Shown in pieces: positions 7,173 to 22,569 of a stretch of 64,000 nucleotides of DNA. The notes below the pieces were generated by a model. The model saw nothing but the letters and a program-made list of their open reading frames with translations. It was not told where the DNA came from and did not search any database. Origin of the DNA: Chloroflexota bacterium (lineage in GTDB: Bacteria > Chloroflexota > Dehalococcoidia > JACPEP01). Position 1 is the stretch's first letter. Each line of letters opens with the position of its first letter. The position numbers and the translations under genes were made by a program. Where the stretch lies: contig JACPEP010000014.1 in the NCBI GenBank assembly GCA_016183425.1, positions 38,148 to 102,147 on the forward strand, in the 5' to 3' direction.

Positions 7173-10100
7173 TTGAGGGTTCTAATTGACCTCGTGGCCC
7201 TTTACTTGTTCCTAGTGGTGGGCCTCGCCTACCTTGGCTACGGCGCTACGAGACTACTCTTACCGGTGTCTCTTTGGCGCTGGCAACCCCTCCTCACGCC
7301 GTTTCTAGGTTATGCGGTGGTGACCATCGTCTTCCACAGCCTAAATACTTCTTGGTTGAACGCAGAACAGTCCACAGTGGTGCTTTTGACCCTGACAACT
7401 GGACTAAATGCATTTGCCGTGGCCCGCCGGGGACGACCTCGTGCCCACCCGACATGGAAGGACGACTTGATCCCAATGCTACTCTCCTTCGGAGTCTACA
7501 TCGGGGCTACTATTCCGCTTATTAGCTATGGGTTTATAACAGTGGTGGGGACGAATGGAGACGTGGAGCAATACCTTGCGGGTGCAGATTACATCCGGCG
7601 CTTTAATCTCAGTGCGCTAGCTACTGCCCCCCCGAATCCGTTGCTGGATCTGGCTGCGAAATTAACCGGGCCCTTTGGCGGTTGGGGCTTTACCTACATC
7701 CTGTCCCTGGTCACCCTGATCCTGGGGTGGTCTGGCGAAAAGGCTTTTGCACCGCTCTTGGCCTTCCTGGTGGCTGCTAACGTGATAGCGATGCATCTCT
7801 TTGCCAGATCGGTTCTCGGTCTGTCATGGCGGGGGAGTGCTTTTGCCAGCTTTGCCCTTGGTGTGAATGGTCTCCTCCTCTGGACCGGTTTTTTCAATTA
7901 TGGCCGCCAGGTAGCGGTGTTGCCCCTCCTGCCTGTTGCCGCTTTAGCCTTCTTGGCTTCCTTCAGACATAGAAGTTGGCGCTCTATTCTGTTTGCCGCC
8001 CTTCTTTTTGCGGCGGTGACCATAACGTATCGCCCGGCAACGCTCTTGCTACTGGTATCGATGAGCATATTTGCCGCCATGACCATTGTCAGGGGACGCC
8101 ATAGGCTCAGACTGGCGGCTACGATAGGCGCCCCTCTTGCCCTGGGCTTTCTGCCACTAGGGGCCAGTTTACCCGAGTATATGACGCGAATTAGCCGAGT
8201 ATTCAGCGAGAGGGTTCTCAGCGGTAGTCCGATAAGCAAAACCCCGCTTTTCTCCGAATTTCTGCCCCTTAACCACCTCTATGGACTGTCTTACTACGTG
8301 TGGCCGGCTCCCGAGCCGGCAGGGGAGCGATTAAGCTCGACGCTGGTCTGGGTGGTCAATAACTCCGAAACAGGCGCGGTAGCTTTGTCTCTAGCCTTGG
8401 GCATCTATGCCCTCTGGCGCACGACCCGAGCGGGGCGGGATATGGCCCTAAGCCTGACAATGGCCTCGGCCCTGTTTCTCGGAGCAATGCGTCTGATAGA
8501 CGACCGTTATAGCTACTTTAAGATCCTTACCTTTTCTAGCTTTTGGGCCACTAGCTTGGGGGTGTTGGGGTTGAGCCTGGTCTGGCAAGCCGCCAGCCGA
8601 TCCAGGAGCAAAGCACTGGAGTCGCTCGGCAAGAATGGCCTCTCCCTCTTTGGTGTAGCATTCCTGTCCTTAGGCAGCATCAATGCCTATTTCACCATTA
8701 ACCATTTCCTTGGTAAGCCCCAGTCCCCCTTCGTAAGTCCCTACCTTGATGTTGCGCAGCTTTCCAGCATCATCGAGCCGCAGGCCTCCATATGTCTCAC
8801 TAGTGCTCCCAGTTTACAAGGTGGGGCGATGGGCGTCATTGCTTACTCATTGATGGCGTATCCTCTCTACCCCCTTTATGGGGGGATTAATACGGCGGAG
8901 AGCGGAACAGGGCCTCCCGTTCACCAAGGGTCCGCAGGTCGCTATTTTTCGGTCTCTAGTGGCAATAGAGGAAGGGAAACAAACCTCTGTGACTACGCGC
9001 TCCTCGCCGCCAGCGAGGAGCCCTCAGAATGGGGCTATTCAGCAGATTCCCTCGTGTGGGCCAATAAAGAGATCAAGGTTTATAGCCGAGAGGGCACTAT
9101 GGCTCATTTGCAATTTGACACGGGCAATGGCGGGCGCACTATAACCAGTGCCGAACCCTTCAGAACGATAGTTACCGCGGCGACCATGCCAGAAGTCAAC
9201 CCTGGGGATAGCCAATATCTTGTCATTCAGATGGGCACCTTTAGTAACCAGCAGCTAGTCGTGGAAATTGACGGTAAGGAAAATCGCGTGGCAATTGGCC
9301 CAGGCCTGTGGCGATACCAGTCAGAATCCACATACCTCCCGGCATCGGTGGCTATCAGATCTGAGGGCCCTGACCCAATTTTCCTGAACTGGTTGGAACT
9401 GAGGTATGGCTCGAGGCCAGCACCCTCAAAAACGAAACTCGAGAGAGCTCTGCTCCTGCAATCGGCGTCCATGCAACGGCCCGATAGCATTTTAATGCAG
9501 GTAGGTTGGTTGTCTCCAGAACCCCAGCTCGTCCGTGGCTGGATTGAGATCTGGGTGAGAAACAGGGCCAGTTCGGGGGACAGGTTCCTCATTGGCCGGG
9601 GGGCCTTGGACAAGGCTGACCACGAAATCCAGGTTCAGATGCTCCTCCCCGGCGGGCAGGCCCGCTCCCCAAGCACCGAATCGGGTGTCTCCCGTTGGAA
9701 CCCCGACTGGAGGGATGGAGAGTACGTTGGGGAGCTGTATATTGTCTTTGACGACTTGGTGCAGGATGAAGCATTGTCCGCTATCTGGCAGGCGCGGCCC
9801 GACCTTCGAGAGGCAGCCTCTAAATCTGGTTGGGAGCCTGGTCAGTGGAAGAAATTCATGCTGGACTGGTGGCAGGATACCCCAGAGGCGTCAGGAAAGG
9901 ACCGGGACATCGTGGCCTTTGCTAGGAAATCCATGGACTTCACCCCAAGCTATGAGCAGAAGGTAGCAGAACTGTTTACCTTAAGGTTGCGGCAGAATAG
10001 CGTCGTCGAGGCTGCGATGAATCACTATCCGTTTTTGCATCACTACTTCCCCCCCAGTCCCTGGACATCGGTGGACGAAATGTTCGGTAATACTGCTCGA

Positions 10101-16766: not shown

Positions 16767-16856
16767 GGAGAGGTGTCCGAGGGGTTGATGGTGCCGCTCT
16801 CGAAAAGCGGTCTCGCCGCAAGGTGAGCGTGGGTTCGAATCCCACCCTCTCCGCCA
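16767..16856 (+). tRNA. tRNA-Ser (anticodon CGA), long variable arm
   Basis: Acceptor GGAGAGG/CCTCTCC. Anticodon stem CCGCT/AGCGG with loop CTCGAAA. Long variable arm. T-arm GTGGGTTCGAATCCCAC. Discriminator G. CCA encoded. Confidence 0.9.
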
Positions 16857-16898
16857 CACGACGCTGGCCGAAAATGTGAGTACCTAGGTTCTTTTAGC

Positions 16899-16985
16899 GG
16901 AGAGGTGCTGGAGTGGCCGATCAGGCGCGCCTGGAGAGCGCGTGTCGCCGTAAGGTGACCGTGGGTTCGAATCCCACCCTCTCCG
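16899..16985 (+). tRNA. tRNA-Ser (anticodon GGA), long variable arm
   Basis: Same acceptor and T-arm as the first copy. Anticodon stem CGCGC/GCGCG with loop CTGGAGA. No encoded CCA. Confidence 0.9.
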
Positions 16986-17050
16986 TCAGCCTTACGCCAA
17001 GGCTACGGCTGGCAAGCCAGATAGAACACAAAGAAAATGGATGAGCAACT

Positions 17051-17602
17051 ATGAGCGCAAAATCAAAAGAGAAAGCCGTTGTCCTCACTGCTGATCAGTT
17101 TGAAGACATGGAGGTTTTCTTTCCTGTATTTCGTTTGATAGAGGAGGGGTGGCAAGTTGACGTTGCCGCCCCTAAAGTCGAAGAAATTCACGGTGAGAAT
17201 GGCTACTCTTTAGTTCCCGACAAAACCATTGATGAAGTGGACCCCGATGACTATGATCTGCTAGTCATTCCCGGAGGATCTCCCGATGGCGCACCAAGCA
17301 CCGTTAGACATGTTAAAAAGGCTCAGGAAATAGCAAAGGCATTCTTTAACAAAAATAAGCCGGTGGCTTCAATATGTCACGGACCATACACTCTGGTTTC
17401 TGCCGATGTGGTTAAGGGAAGGCATCTAACATCTTATTGGCATGATGGGGTGCCCGAAGAGATAAAACGAGCCGGTGGAATATGGGAAGATAATGAAGTA
17501 GTGGTTGATGACAATTTAGTAACATCACGCTGGCCAATGGATTTGCCTGCCTTTATGAGAGAGATAATAAGCCTCATCAAAAGGTCGAAGAGTAATAAGT
17601 AA
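17051..17602 (+). CDS. DJ-1/PfpI family protein (class I glutamine amidotransferase-like)
   Basis: Nucleophile elbow ASICHGP plus YDLLVIPGG. 183 aa, low GC. Confidence 0.85.
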   Translation: MSAKSKEKAVVLTADQFEDMEVFFPVFRLIEEGWQVDVAAPKVEEIHGENGYSLVPDKTIDEVDPDDYDLLVIPGGSPDGAPSTVRHVKKAQEIAKAFFNKNKPVASICHGPYTLVSADVVKGRHLTSYWHDGVPEEIKRAGGIWEDNEVVVDDNLVTSRWPMDLPAFMREIISLIKRSKSNK

Positions 17603-17686
17603 TAACATCAAACCAGATCTAGCCGAGGTTCCGTCAATAGGTTTGTAAAAGGGATCAAGCAACGGCGAGCATCTCTTCCTGCCTGA

Positions 17687-17854
17687 TTTCAACTCCGTGA
17701 ATTGGTAGCGCCTATTGGCAAACAGATTGAGAACCTACTGGCGCGGAACAGGAACCTCCGTGACACGCGCGACCTGCTATTGCCCAAGCTAATTTCCGGC
17801 GAGATCGAAGTATTGGAGCTGGATATTAAGACGGAAAGGTTGGAACATGAATGA
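17687..17854 (+). pseudogene. hsdS: C-terminal remnant (about 55 aa) of a type I restriction-modification specificity subunit HsdS
   Basis: FQLRELVAPIGKQIENLLARNRNLRDTRDLLLPKLISGEIEVLELD. The R(D)xLLPKLISGEI motif is the conserved HsdS C-terminus. An in-frame TGA at 17684 bounds it. No TRD or N-terminal part is present. Confidence 0.55.
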
Positions 17855-19073
17855 CATTCTATTTCATCAATGTGACCTGATATCCGTCATTCAGAACCAA
17901 GAGCGGAGCATGGCTGCAGAGATTGACGCGCTCCCCGAAAGCCGGCTGTTGAATACATCACTTGATGATCTCTGTGATTACTTTGCTCAGAAGTACAGCA
18001 TCGAGCCGCCTGAAATCAGAGAAGCTGATATCCAAGCTGACTATGGCGATGCAAAGATTGATGTGAGCGGGAGGGTTGAGTATGCTGTGTTTGATAGAAG
18101 CAGGCCCACTTACGTGACGGGAACGAAGCTCACCTTCTACGTACCATTCGAAGGTGACGCGAACCTCTTCAAATGTCGACCGTCAACATTCAACTTTAAT
18201 CCTCCAAGGGGGGAAGTAAGGAATGGTGAACTGGTAGTCACATACGAGCGCACGGTCTCGGATGCCCCGCAAATCGAATCCGAGTTCAAGCGAGACTTGC
18301 AAAATCTGAAAGGATACCTTGACTGGATCACGCGAGACGTGGCACCTTTCAATTCTTCTGTGCGTGAAAAGGCCCGGCAACGCATCGAAGCCAGGCGAGA
18401 AAAGTTGCTGAAGGATAGAGGATTGGCAGAGAAGATCGGCTTTCCGCTAAGAAGAAGAGAGGGATCGCCCCAGACATACGTTGCCCCGCAAGTGAAACGG
18501 AAGATTACTCCAAAGCTGCCGCCTGCATCTGGCGCGCCATTTATGCCAGAGCCGACGCTAGATATGCAGGAGTATGAGCACATACTCTCTGTGATATCCA
18601 ACATGGTACAGGTCATGGAGCGCAGCCCTCAGGCGTTTCGCGGGATGAAGGAAGAAGACCTACGGCAACATTTCCTGGTCCAGTTGAACGGGCAATACGA
18701 AGGCCAAGCTACAGGTGAAACGTTCAATTTCGGAGGTAAGACTGACATTCTAGTACGTGTCGAGGGCAAGAATATCTTCATCGCAGAGTGCAAGTTCTGG
18801 GAAGGGCCGAAATCCCTTAATCGGGCCATTGAGCAGTTGCTCGTCTATGCCAGCTGGCGCGACACCAAGACAGCGCTTCTGATATTCAACAGGGGTAGTA
18901 ATTTGTCCACCGTTCTCAGCAAGCTACCTGAAGTTATGAAAGCACATTCGAACTACAAACGTGATCTCCCGTTCAAGTCAGAAACGGGCTTCCGTTATGC
19001 ATTTCATCACCGGGATGACCCAAATCGGGAGCTTATCCTGTCTGTGTTGGCATTCGAGGTGCCCGCATCATGA
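17847..19073 (+). CDS. Hypothetical 408-aa protein with a C-terminal PD-(D/E)xK (restriction-endonuclease-like) nuclease motif. Candidate defence or abortive-infection effector.
   Basis: The start overlaps the hsdS-remnant stop (ATGAATGA). The C-terminal GGKTDILVRVEGKNIFIAECKFWEG matches the D...(E)xK core. The N-terminal approximately 290 aa have no recognisable motif. Low GC. Confidence 0.5.
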   Translation: MNDILFHQCDLISVIQNQERSMAAEIDALPESRLLNTSLDDLCDYFAQKYSIEPPEIREADIQADYGDAKIDVSGRVEYAVFDRSRPTYVTGTKLTFYVPFEGDANLFKCRPSTFNFNPPRGEVRNGELVVTYERTVSDAPQIESEFKRDLQNLKGYLDWITRDVAPFNSSVREKARQRIEARREKLLKDRGLAEKIGFPLRRREGSPQTYVAPQVKRKITPKLPPASGAPFMPEPTLDMQEYEHILSVISNMVQVMERSPQAFRGMKEEDLRQHFLVQLNGQYEGQATGETFNFGGKTDILVRVEGKNIFIAECKFWEGPKSLNRAIEQLLVYASWRDTKTALLIFNRGSNLSTVLSKLPEVMKAHSNYKRDLPFKSETGFRYAFHHRDDPNRELILSVLAFEVPAS

Positions 19074-19327
19074 CTGTCAATGTAAGGAAATACCCTCTCC
19101 ACCACTTGTCCATCATAGTTCCATGGCACGATTCAGGATGGGCGGGCATTGTATGCCAAGCACCCACGTTCAACGACGCGTGTCTAAAGCTGAAGCGTAT
19201 TGCCGACGGCAGAAATGACGTTAATGTCTTGTCCGCCCAACCCTATGTGCAGCCCCCCGGCTTCGCTACCACCCAGGTGGCTGAACCGAAAGCCGTTAGA
19301 GGGCTCAGTCAAATAAGCTTCCCTTGA
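19070..19327 (+). CDS. Hypothetical 85-aa ORF, translationally coupled (ATGA overlap). Possibly a truncated N-terminus at the island edge.
   Basis: ORF only. The start overlaps the upstream stop. It ends exactly where the high-GC flank resumes. Confidence 0.3.
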   Translation: MTVNVRKYPLHHLSIIVPWHDSGWAGIVCQAPTFNDACLKLKRIADGRNDVNVLSAQPYVQPPGFATTQVAEPKAVRGLSQISFP

Positions 19328-19329
19328 AG

Positions 19330-19692
19330 CTAGCCTTGCTTCCTGGACTCTTGGAACCGGGTCTGAAGCTCATCGCTGGCCTTCACGGCGGCCTTCCTCC
19401 CCTCCTCCACGGCCTCCTTCATCAGCTCAGAGCCCTCATCCAAAACTACCTTGCTCTGGGCCAAAAGCTCGTCCGCCCTGGCCCTTGCTTTTGCGCTCAG
19501 CTCCTGGCCCTGCTCTCGGGCAACCGCAGAAAGCTCCTCGGCCAGGTCTTTGAACTCCAACCCCTTCTCCCGTAACTTCTGGCGCGTCTCCTGGCCAGAC
19601 TGGGGCGCTAGTATAAAACCCAGAAAGGCCCCCACCAACCCCCCCAGCACAAAGCCTGTCCAGAAGCCGGCCCCTCCACCGTTACTAGCCAT
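19330..19692 (-). CDS. YtxH-like stress protein
   Basis: MASNGGGAGFWTGFVLGGLVGAFLGFILAP (glycine-zipper TM) followed by a Lys/Glu-rich helical region, typical of the YtxH family. Start set at the internal Met. Confidence 0.55.
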   Translation of the reverse strand: MASNGGGAGFWTGFVLGGLVGAFLGFILAPQSGQETRQKLREKGLEFKDLAEELSAVAREQGQELSAKARARADELLAQSKVVLDEGSELMKEAVEEGRKAAVKASDELQTRFQESRKQG

Positions 19693-19981
19693 GGCTTTTC
19701 CTCCCTTTTCTTCTAGAAAAACCGGCGATAACACCGATGCCTCGGCGCACCCCGGATACGAAGCTGACCCCTTTGATTATAGGCTTGACAACCAGCTCGG
19801 ATACGAAAGATGTTGTCCCCTGTAAGTTTCCCATCGTGCTTTGGCCCAACTCAAGAATCCTTCTCAACCGATCAAAGATGATTAGCGATAGCACTAAAAA
19901 TACGGCCAGGGTAAAAATTCCTAAAATAGCAAAGAGGACTATTGCTAAATCTCTCAATTGAGCTAAGGTCAACGTAAACAC
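19685..19981 (-). CDS. DUF948-like membrane protein
   Basis: N-terminal TM (AIVLFAILGIFTLAVFLVLSLIIF) plus a helical region. Usually found paired with YtxH. Confidence 0.5.
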   Translation of the reverse strand: MFTLTLAQLRDLAIVLFAILGIFTLAVFLVLSLIIFDRLRRILELGQSTMGNLQGTTSFVSELVVKPIIKGVSFVSGVRRGIGVIAGFSRRKGRKSHG

Positions 19982-20161: not shown

Positions 20162-20800
20162 ATGTCCGAAGAACTGGGAAGGATCGAGAGGCCTTCGGCG
20201 GCGGAGTTCAGAGCCGAAAGAAAGCTGTACTTCGTGCCGCTAGTTTTCTCTCCCCGAGAACCGTCAGACCAGCTTGGGGAACAAATCGACCGCTATTGGG
20301 ATCAGGTGGATGCTCAAGTGGCCAACCTGGAGCGAAAGCTGGCCAGCGTAGATAAAGTGTATCATGAGCTGGTGCCCGTGGGCGGCGAGGACGGCGCTAA
20401 AGCCATGGAGGAGCTAAACAAAGGGAGCTACAAGGTTGCCCAGTCCAGACTGGCTCGAGGGGCCAAGCTCCAGCCCATTGAGGATAGCTATCTGCTAGCA
20501 GAGTTCATGGATTGGAGCCGGTGCCTGGCCGTGGGCTTGCAAACGCCAAAAGTGTGGGAACAGGTCTATGGATTCTATACTGAGGCATTGAAAAAAAGAA
20601 ACGAGTACATAGCCCAGCAGATAGATAAGACCTTGGAAAGCGGCCAGGCCGGAATACTGCTCATGAGGGAAGGCCATCAGGTTCAGTTTTCCCAAGACAT
20701 ACAGGTATTCTATGTTTCTCCACCGGCCTTGGACGAAATCGAGCGCTGGCTGAGAGAGCATTCTGACCAAACAGCGGAGGCCGAGGATGCCCAAAAGTAG
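20162..20800 (+). CDS. Hypothetical protein (212 aa), first gene of the PAC2 operon
   Basis: Clean ORF with protein-like composition. No motif recognised. Confidence 0.5.
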   Translation: MSEELGRIERPSAAEFRAERKLYFVPLVFSPREPSDQLGEQIDRYWDQVDAQVANLERKLASVDKVYHELVPVGGEDGAKAMEELNKGSYKVAQSRLARGAKLQPIEDSYLLAEFMDWSRCLAVGLQTPKVWEQVYGFYTEALKKRNEYIAQQIDKTLESGQAGILLMREGHQVQFSQDIQVFYVSPPALDEIERWLREHSDQTAEAEDAQK

Positions 20801-20814
20801 TGAGGGATAAGGGA

Positions 20815-21732
20815 ATGACCGTCAGGCTTCACACCGAACCTCGGCTGGAAAACCCGGTTCTGGTAGCTGGGTGGCCGGGTATTGGCAACATCGGCATCAT
20901 AGCCGTGGACACTTTAAAAGGGATGACTCAAGCCGAGGAATTCGGGGAGATAGAGCCCTGGGACTTTTTCTACCCGCGGAAGGTTCTCATTAGAGATGGC
21001 GAGTTGAAAGACCTGGAGTTCCCCACCAGCAAGTTTTACTTTAAGCGAACGGCAAATCGGGACTTGATCTTCTTCATCGGAGAGGAGCAGCCCCTGGGAG
21101 GCGGAGGGGTCTACGCCGAGGGGGATAAGGCCTATGAAATGGCCAATCTTGTCCTGGACATCGCCCTGAGATTTGGGTGCCAAAAAGTATACACCTCCGG
21201 AGCCGCCGTTTCCCCTATCCACCACACTATGAAACCTAGGGTATGGGCCGTGCCTAACACGGCCCGCCTCATACCTGAGATAAGAAGATATGAAAACACG
21301 GTGCTTATGTCCGATATCGAAGAGCGAGGCGGACAAGGAACCATCACCGGTTTAAATGGTCTTCTCTTGGGGGTAGCCAGAAAAAGGGGCCTGGAGGCTG
21401 TTTGTTTCATGGGAGAGATACCCATCTACCTCCAGGGATTTCACCTTCCCTATCCCAAGGCGTCAAAGTCGGTGCTGGAGGTATTAACTGCTGCCCTGAG
21501 AATCAGCATCCCGACTACAGAACTTTCAACCTTCATTGAACGTACCGATGGAGAGATTGAGAGGCTATACGAGAATTTCCCCCCGGAAATACGGCAACAG
21601 TTGGAAAAGCTAAGGTATGTCACTCACACCAAGGCCCAGTCTCAGGAGCCGGGCCCCATAACCGAGGAAGACAAAAGGGGAATCCTGGAGAACATTGATA
21701 AGTTCTTCAAGAAGGAACCCAAAGGGGACTGA
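20815..21732 (+). CDS. PAC2 (proteasome assembly chaperone 2-like) family protein, paralog 1
   Basis: NPVLVAGWPGIGNIGIIAVDTL and the later GLNGLLLGVA are typical of the PAC2 family. Confidence 0.55.
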   Translation: MTVRLHTEPRLENPVLVAGWPGIGNIGIIAVDTLKGMTQAEEFGEIEPWDFFYPRKVLIRDGELKDLEFPTSKFYFKRTANRDLIFFIGEEQPLGGGGVYAEGDKAYEMANLVLDIALRFGCQKVYTSGAAVSPIHHTMKPRVWAVPNTARLIPEIRRYENTVLMSDIEERGGQGTITGLNGLLLGVARKRGLEAVCFMGEIPIYLQGFHLPYPKASKSVLEVLTAALRISIPTTELSTFIERTDGEIERLYENFPPEIRQQLEKLRYVTHTKAQSQEPGPITEEDKRGILENIDKFFKKEPKGD

Positions 21733-21735
21733 AAA

Positions 21736-22569
21736 TTGACTGAAAAACATCCCTTTACCATCTATTGGGAACCGCCTTTGCAGAACCCCTCCCTCATCGT
21801 GGGCTGGAGCGAGGATGCCGGCAAACTGGGGTCGAAGGTGGTTGACTACCTGACCCAAAAGCTGCCCGCCAAAGAGCTGGCAGAGATGGAACCAACCAGC
21901 TTTTTCCCCCTCGGGGAAGTCGTCGTAGAAGACGACGTGGCTATGTTCCCCACCAGCAAGTTATATTGCTGCCCGGAAAAGAATCTGGTTATCTTCAAAA
22001 GTAGCCTACCCCGGTCCCAGTGGCATAAGTTCCTAAATGCGGTTCTGGATGTGGTAGGCAACTATGGACACCTCTCAGAGGTCTATACCATTGGCAGCAT
22101 GGTTTCTTTGAGTGCCCACACCGTGCCTCGTCAGTTGTTGGCTGTGGTAAATTCAACAGAAATAAAAAGGGCTTTGAGGAAGTACGAGATAGTCGGGAAC
22201 ATGAACTATGAAACCCCGCCTGGCCAAAGGCCGACCCTAAGCTCTTTTCTCCTATGGGTCGCCAAAAGAAGAAACACACCTGCCGCAAGCCTATGGGTAC
22301 CCATACCTTTTTATCTCGTTTCAACGGAAGACCCCTGGGCTTGTCGAAGAGCCCTTGAGTTTCTTGACCAACGACTCAACCTGAGACTGGATTTCAGAGA
22401 CCTGGACGAAGAAGTAGAGAGACAAGCAGCAAAGATAGCTCAGGCAAGGAGCCATTCTCCCCATGTGGATGCCGGCATCAGGAAGTTAGAAAATAACGAG
22501 GGTGTGACCCACGATGAAAGCGAAAGACTTATCCGGGAAATAGAAGAGTTCCTCAAACAAAAGGATTAA
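21736..22569 (+). CDS. PAC2 family protein, paralog 2
   Basis: NPSLIVGWSEDAGKLGSKVVDYL is the same N-terminal motif as paralog 1. The two are tandemly arranged. Confidence 0.55.
   Translation: MTEKHPFTIYWEPPLQNPSLIVGWSEDAGKLGSKVVDYLTQKLPAKELAEMEPTSFFPLGEVVVEDDVAMFPTSKLYCCPEKNLVIFKSSLPRSQWHKFLNAVLDVVGNYGHLSEVYTIGSMVSLSAHTVPRQLLAVVNSTEIKRALRKYEIVGNMNYETPPGQRPTLSSFLLWVAKRRNTPAASLWVPIPFYLVSTEDPWACRRALEFLDQRLNLRLDFRDLDEEVERQAAKIAQARSHSPHVDAGIRKLENNEGVTHDESERLIREIEEFLKQKD

Follow-up and report, generated by a model that had tools for sequence, protein, structure and literature searches.

A probable internal remnant of a type I restriction-modification operon around an intact PDC-S54 candidate defence gene

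The window (the whole 64-kb stretch of Chloroflexota DNA analyzed here) carried a C-terminal relic of hsdS, the specificity gene in restriction-modification (RM) of type I, and this relic was very probably part of a ~1.6-kb internal piece of an operon hsdM–hsdS–[PDC-S54]–[PDC-S68]–hsdR, which had eroded around PDC-S54 (PDC-S54 and PDC-S68 are termed S54 and S68 below). A preliminary description of this DNA had proposed the decay of an RM system with retention of its cargo gene, and this proposal was supported: the cargo gene was intact, and neither HsdM nor HsdR was detected in the 64-kb window by tblastn or by HMMs built from 9-10 homologues. Judged by its sequence match (see below), the cargo gene was not anonymous but already catalogued as the defence candidate PDC-S54. 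Such decay of an RM operon that leaves the embedded gene in place is ordinary, and the case represented no new kind of system. The relic itself was routine and had no predicted activity; the surviving piece as a whole displayed clearly, at both of its sides, how a type I RM operon erodes around the candidate defence gene embedded in it. The features concerned are listed in Table 1.

Table 1. Features of the RM piece and its surroundings in the window, with one comparable decay product from another sequence
Feature	Position	Strand	Remarks
Two tandem tRNA-Ser genes	16767-16856 and 16898-16987		Anticodons CGA and GGA
DJ-1/PfpI gene	17051-17602	+	Directly 3' of the tandem tRNA-Ser genes
Possible degraded 5' extension of the HsdS relic	17645-17689	+	VKGIKQRRASLPA, then in-frame TGA at 17687-17689
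HsdS C-terminal relic	17690-17854	+	Last ~55 codons plus stop; conserved C-terminal helix with RDLLLPKLISGEI motif
S54 translation-initiation region in the hsdS tail	17833-17854	+	SD-like GGAAAGG at 17833-17839, ATG at 17847, overlap ATGAATGA
Intact PDC-S54 gene, 408 aa	17847-19073	+	GenBank MBI2303947.1, annotated as 'hypothetical protein'
PDC-S68 N-terminal relic	19070-19219	+	First ~50 codons; the whole helicase-like candidate has ~1,220 aa
Non-homologous tail of the 85-aa frame past the right breakpoint	19220-19327	+	35 unrelated residues
YtxH gene	19330-19734	minus	Pfam PF12732; convergent
Tandem PAC2-family gene pair	20800-22569
Decay product at locus L001 (ENA ERZ25039515, contig_14944)	9750-10008		HsdM stub ends with TAG, followed by the hsdS tail

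The relic frame behind the TGA at 17687-17689 read FQLRELVAPIGKQIENLLARNRNLRDTRDLLLPKLISGEIEVLELDIKTERLEHE and was closed by the TGA at 17852-17854; in the frame used by the preliminary description, translation from 17600 gave …GIKQRRASLPA and a stop, and then FQLRELVAPIGKQIENLLARNRNLRDTRDLLLPKLISGEIEVLELDIKTERLEHE and the closing stop. Twenty-four PADLOC Specificity_I models matched the relic (17690-17851, plus strand; best E-value 3.9e-10), as did one PADLOC model of the HsdM-HsdS fusion type (fused MTase_I), and the C-terminus of the profile (its final ~45 positions) was the matching part every time; the earlier reading of an HsdS C-terminal end bounded upstream by an in-frame TGA was thereby borne out. 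A TBLASTN comparison with HsdS, which had been named as the check on that reading, was significant as well: the HsdS of L003 (loci from other sequences are designated by L numbers) matched the 2.4-kb region of the relic with 50% identity over 66 aa (E-value 2e-11), and the homologous part corresponded to aa ~345-410 of its 413 aa. A phmmer comparison against all window ORFs gave E-value 1.1e-11 for the relic frame. The fragment of 54-55 aa had no match in Pfam (including PF01420, Methylase_S), in NCBIfam, or, by phmmer, in PDB sequences, because the HsdS tail is not modelled there and the target-recognition domain is gone. These empty searches, together with the small size (55 aa), coiled-coil-like character, and simple composition of the fragment, might raise the suspicion of a chance similarity or of a chimeric junction produced by assembly, but such an origin has a negligible probability: the matching HsdS profiles always aligned through their C-termini, the fragment lay directly 5' of S54 as in intact operons, and both junctions were 100% identical in three independent Logan assemblies (SRR12113422, SRR12113401, and SRR12113426) and were also common to the GenBank MAG contig. 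Since separate assemblies had identical junctions, a chimera or other assembly artefact was excluded.

Compared to a complete HsdS, the relic retained the conserved C-terminal helical region (the partner of the central conserved region), including the final conserved helix (…NRNLRxTRDLLLPKLISGEI…), and it occupied the same place relative to S54 as in L003, L004, and L088. Unlike the subunit, it had neither of the two target-recognition domains (no PF01420 match in the fragment), nor the central conserved region, nor a complete ORF with a credible start codon or ribosome-binding site, nor an hsdM or hsdR partner in the 64-kb window. Because both target-recognition domains, the start codon, and the partners were missing, the fragment is regarded as a pseudogene stub from which no functional specificity subunit would be made. 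Its left edge was blurred: the tblastn alignment with aa 345-357 of L003 HsdS passed through the TGA back to 17645 (VKGIKQRRASLPA and the stop), only about 4 of the 13 residues upstream of the TGA were identical to L003 HsdS, and DNA-level similarity to L003 started only at 17710 (blastn). The alignments placed the left breakpoint somewhere within 17645-17690 or just ahead of it, an uncertainty due to the poor match of the upstream stretch.

The relic and S54 overlapped by 8 nt (ATGAATGA), which contained the ATG at 17847-17849 and the TGA at 17852-17854; the preliminary description was right that a stop/start overlap with the next gene existed but not that it was of the ATGA type. The hsdS/S54 overlap was likewise 8 nt in L003, L088, and L001 (in L001 the same ATGAATGA) and 4 nt in L004. 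The SD-like GGAAAGG, weak and with an AAGG core, ended 7 nt before the S54 ATG, and purine-rich SD-like motifs were present at the equivalent place in L003, L004, L088, and L001. Two modes of S54 translation had been offered earlier: initiation at its own start would be the most likely one, given its own AAGG, but translation by ribosome traffic from the relic appears unlikely, since TTG 17702, the sole in-frame start within the relic, had no SD-like motif upstream as read from the sequence.

A functional role of the HsdS tail was weighed at this point: it could be a leader peptide of ~50 aa initiated at TTG 17702, whose stop at ATGAATGA couples the translation of S54. The stop/start overlap is indeed conserved in intact operons, the 50-codon frame is open, and the similarity of the tail to intact HsdS tails equalled that among those tails. 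The missing SD-like motif at TTG 17702 and the presence of one for S54 itself, however, speak against a leader, as does the absence of notable RNA structure in the relic region (z = 0.18 by RNA folding); moreover, the tail was reduced to ~12 codons in L001 and 13 aa in L032 and was missing at most solo S54 loci, so S54 does not need it. The leader-peptide reading is accordingly held to be very improbable. An Rfam scan of the relic region found no family. As to the fate of the 55 codons, the ~20-30 nt at the 3' end of the relic were probably kept because they supply S54 with its SD-like motif and start context, and the other ~140 nt would probably be debris not yet eroded. From the stop of DJ-1 to the ATG of S54, the plus strand displayed neither a sigma-70-like promoter, whose consensus may not fit Chloroflexota, nor an intrinsic terminator; transcription of S54 would probably come by read-through from DJ-1/PfpI upstream or start at a promoter that escaped recognition.

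On the other side of S54, the ORF at 19070-19327 (85 aa) matched positions 3-46 of 1221 in PADLOC model PDLC05065 (E-value 5.2e-14), and its stub (KYPLHHLSIIVPWHDSGWAGIVCQAP…) was 68% identical to aa 4-47 of L003 S68. Local alignment lost the homology at aa 50 (nt 19219), which put the right breakpoint at about 19220; the stop of the 85-aa frame abutted that of the convergent YtxH gene. The S68 stub overlapped S54 by 4 nt, ATGA (19070-19073). As far as these alignments go, the ORF is a second relic, one that the preliminary description had missed: PDC-S68 is a protein of ~1,200 aa with a helicase core, and the window stub shared the N-terminus of the profile and the ATGA overlap with S54 but had no helicase domains, with 4% of the protein left. 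With a relic on both sides of S54, the surviving piece was truncated at both ends. Neither the HsdS nor the S68 stub was annotated in the GenBank record, in which MBI2303947.1 should be corrected to a PDC-S54-family protein with a predicted PD-(D/E)xK domain, flanked by two pseudogene stubs.

The intact arrangement hsdMS–X–hsdR, which the preliminary description had suggested looking for in relatives, was found in two forms: (i) hsdM–hsdS–S54–hsdR in L004 and L088, and (ii) hsdM–hsdS–S54–S68–hsdR in L003, which had S68 as an extra gene. In L003, S54 was 74% identical to the window gene, S68 comprised 1229 aa with AAA_19/AAA_30/UvrD_C_2 domains, and the overlaps were those of the window (8 nt for hsdS/S54 and 4 nt for S54/S68). 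S54 lay between hsdS and hsdR, and was thus embedded, in L003, L004, L088, L020, L031, L033, L037, and L050, among them the copies of the closest relatives; the window copy was no longer embedded, its host RM system being gone. Since L003 and, with its stub, the window were the only ones of 89 loci in which S68 came after S54, the window piece would derive from an L003-like operon, and L003 serves as the intact template that shows exactly what the window lost: (i) at the 5' side, everything before about HsdS residue 345-358, including hsdM and both target-recognition domains, and (ii) at the 3' side, everything past about S68 residue 50, i.e., the helicase body and hsdR. A two-gene module of S54 plus S68 was considered and rejected, the pairing being limited to L003 and the window (stub) among the 89 loci. 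In L050 (Bacillota MAG JAEXOU010000024.1, 5103-8569), partial inverted hsdS copies (6274-6128 and 8334-7708, minus strand) were located between the expressed hsdS and S54, resembling an invertible hsdS shufflon adjoining an embedded S54.

The retained gene matched PADLOC PDC-S54 model PDLC05036 from end to end (E-value 6.6e-162), its residues 2-406 aligning to positions 2-407 of 410, and it was thereby a member of the PDC-S54 family. The AlphaFold2 model (116-sequence alignment; mean pLDDT 81.6) was composed of an N-terminal domain (aa 1-196) without convincing fold match in the PDB, a predicted disordered linker (aa ~204-232), and a C-terminal α/β domain (aa 240-408) predicted to be PD-(D/E)xK nuclease-like, with D300, E314, and K316; the model displayed the restriction-endonuclease-like α/β core and D…(D/E)xK motif of the PD-(D/E)xK superfamily, and both this assignment and the unmatched N-terminal domain are readings of models predicted in this analysis alone. 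S54 would probably work alone in defence or conflict, as a protein of the nuclease type. The family comprised at least 4,933 matches, the best 120 being 60-77% identical; no Pfam domain was found in it, and it ranged over many bacterial phyla and some archaea. Homologues were present on 27 plasmid and 2 phage records, always as 'hypothetical protein'. PDCs are phage defence candidates nominated from BREX and DISARM as well as type I RM systems by 'guilt-by-embedding' (Payne et al., bioRxiv 10.1101/2024.01.29.577857), and a defence function of PDC-S54 is a prediction of this kind: a search of that paper with its supplements, and of the literature by name, turned up no text or experiments specific to S54 or S68.

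The S54 frame ran through 408 codons without stop or frameshift and kept all 46 invariant columns of the 116-sequence alignment. It deviated at one of 151 conserved columns (those conserved at ≥90% in the same alignment), compared to a mean of 4.3 in the 115 homologues, 113 of which deviated at least as often. By these counts S54 is intact and looks constrained, with no sign of relaxed constraint. The opposite possibility, that S54 is also a dying passenger and the whole 17.6-19.3 kb piece neutral debris, might draw on the relics at both sides, on the negative promoter scan of the plus strand up to S54, and on the exact-protein look-up, in which every contig retrieved was 100% identical to the window, so that it gave neither other states of the island nor population variation by which selection could be tested. 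It is nevertheless improbable, in view of the open frame and the column counts and of independent lineages that kept S54 while losing the RM genes.

The surroundings of S54 were surveyed with the HsdM and HsdR HMMs (made from 9-10 homologues) over 80 GTDB genome loci. Type I genes lay within 10 kb of S54 at about 14 of the 80 loci, and dozens of S54 loci whose flanks extended 10 kb in both directions had none; by gene content, S54 is mostly a stand-alone gene. Several S54 loci carried traces of hsdS: (i) in L001 and L002, S54 was preceded by the promoter region of the operon, an HsdM N-terminal stub of 57 codons, and an hsdS tail of ~12 codons; (ii) L032 had a 13-aa hsdS tail upstream of S54; and (iii) L089 had a possible hsdS tail of ~30 nt with a TTG start. 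Most solo S54 loci had no hsdS tail. The sequences indicate that the truncations in L001/L002 and in L032 were independent of that in the window, with S54 kept each time. Small ORFs upstream of plasmid-borne S54 homologues (Thauera pTX1 and Nostoc p057_L) were inspected as candidates and proved not to be HsdS tails. In L055 (Entotheonella MAG OZ244252.1, 9995-11529), the S54 homologue was split by an insertion of ~280 nt, with its blocks aa 1-357 and aa 349-406 apart.

HsdS-tail stubs as such are commonplace, since the 55-aa query also found other short HsdS-tail ORFs of 62-97 aa. One of them, a 76-aa ORF in L170 (Nostoc JBTYKM010000034.1, 1-1476), immediately followed a DDE_3 transposase fragment and preceded a DUF433/DUF5615 pair, representing an IS-truncated hsdS; the window breakpoint, unlike the Nostoc one, had no IS element.

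PrrC, an anticodon nuclease restrained by its RM partner, occurs almost exclusively in embedded form. S54, in contrast, was mostly solo, which fits its survival in the window without RM genes. PrrC and RloC in hsdM–hsdS–X–hsdR operons followed the same logic as S54, in that hsdS and hsdR enclose an accessory defence gene, but had no sequence relationship to it; embedded genes of the PrrC/RloC type are cited as an example by Payne et al. (bioRxiv 10.1101/2024.01.29.577857). Taken together, the window, L001/L002, and L032 hint that PDC-S54 is independent of its RM host, which would be useful to consider when a test construct is chosen for this widespread family of at least 4,933 homologues. A further-reaching proposal is advanced only tentatively, being more doubtful than not in our judgement: S54 might be an autonomous nuclease-type defence gene (unmatched N-terminal domain plus PD-(D/E)xK effector) that has repeatedly outlived type I RM operons, with deletions recurrently stopping just 5' of its start because the last hsdS codons double as the S54 ribosome-binding region, in which case the short hsdS tails upstream of solo S54 genes would be a legible trace of the way in which embedded defence genes leave their host systems and turn into stand-alone genes.

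For the window itself, the truncations would have arisen by deletion, either in this genome or before the arrival of the piece. Both stubs were frame-intact (55 codons without frameshift in HsdS and 50 codons in S68), which suggests a fairly recent truncation; the intact frames could also mean some constraint on the stubs. An account different from erosion of a resident operon is that the ~1.6-kb piece was imported already truncated, through illegitimate or short-homology recombination beside tRNA-Ser, so that this genome would never have had a complete type I system. The piece lay 60 nt to 2.3 kb downstream of the tandem tRNA-Ser genes, the adjoining DJ-1/PfpI gene had an atypically low GC3 (0.41 versus 0.57-0.84 in nearby genes), and the frame-intact stubs would fit a single recent event. 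Nevertheless, neither integrase nor IS remnants were found around the piece, the search for att-like repeats of the tRNA-Ser 3' end or other breakpoint repeats gave just one match of 14 nt, which lay within the S68 coding stub and was judged to be at chance level, and other lineages displayed stepwise deletion, such as L001 with its operon promoter and hsdM 5' end. Import in truncated form is considered rather unlikely; it would leave the same anatomy and alter the history alone.

tRNA genes are a typical island hotspot, and the interval 16.99-19.33 kb may be a remnant of a tRNA-linked island. Downstream of the YtxH gene, the PAC2 pair was conserved, more than 460 metagenome contigs containing it with an identity of 66-74%, and its flanking genes were not syntenic; a syntenic pre-decay site was not found through the PAC2 neighbours among 80 loci, which were likewise 66-74% identical, synteny ending at the PAC2 pair, and a 212-aa gene was additionally common to a few of these 80 PAC2 loci. 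The minus strand displayed, at 20021-19994, a sigma-70-like promoter close to the consensus (TTGACC-16-TATAAT and a TG upstream of it; 11 of 12 matches), which pointed to the minus-strand ORFs at 19685-19981 and 19330-19734, the latter being YtxH.
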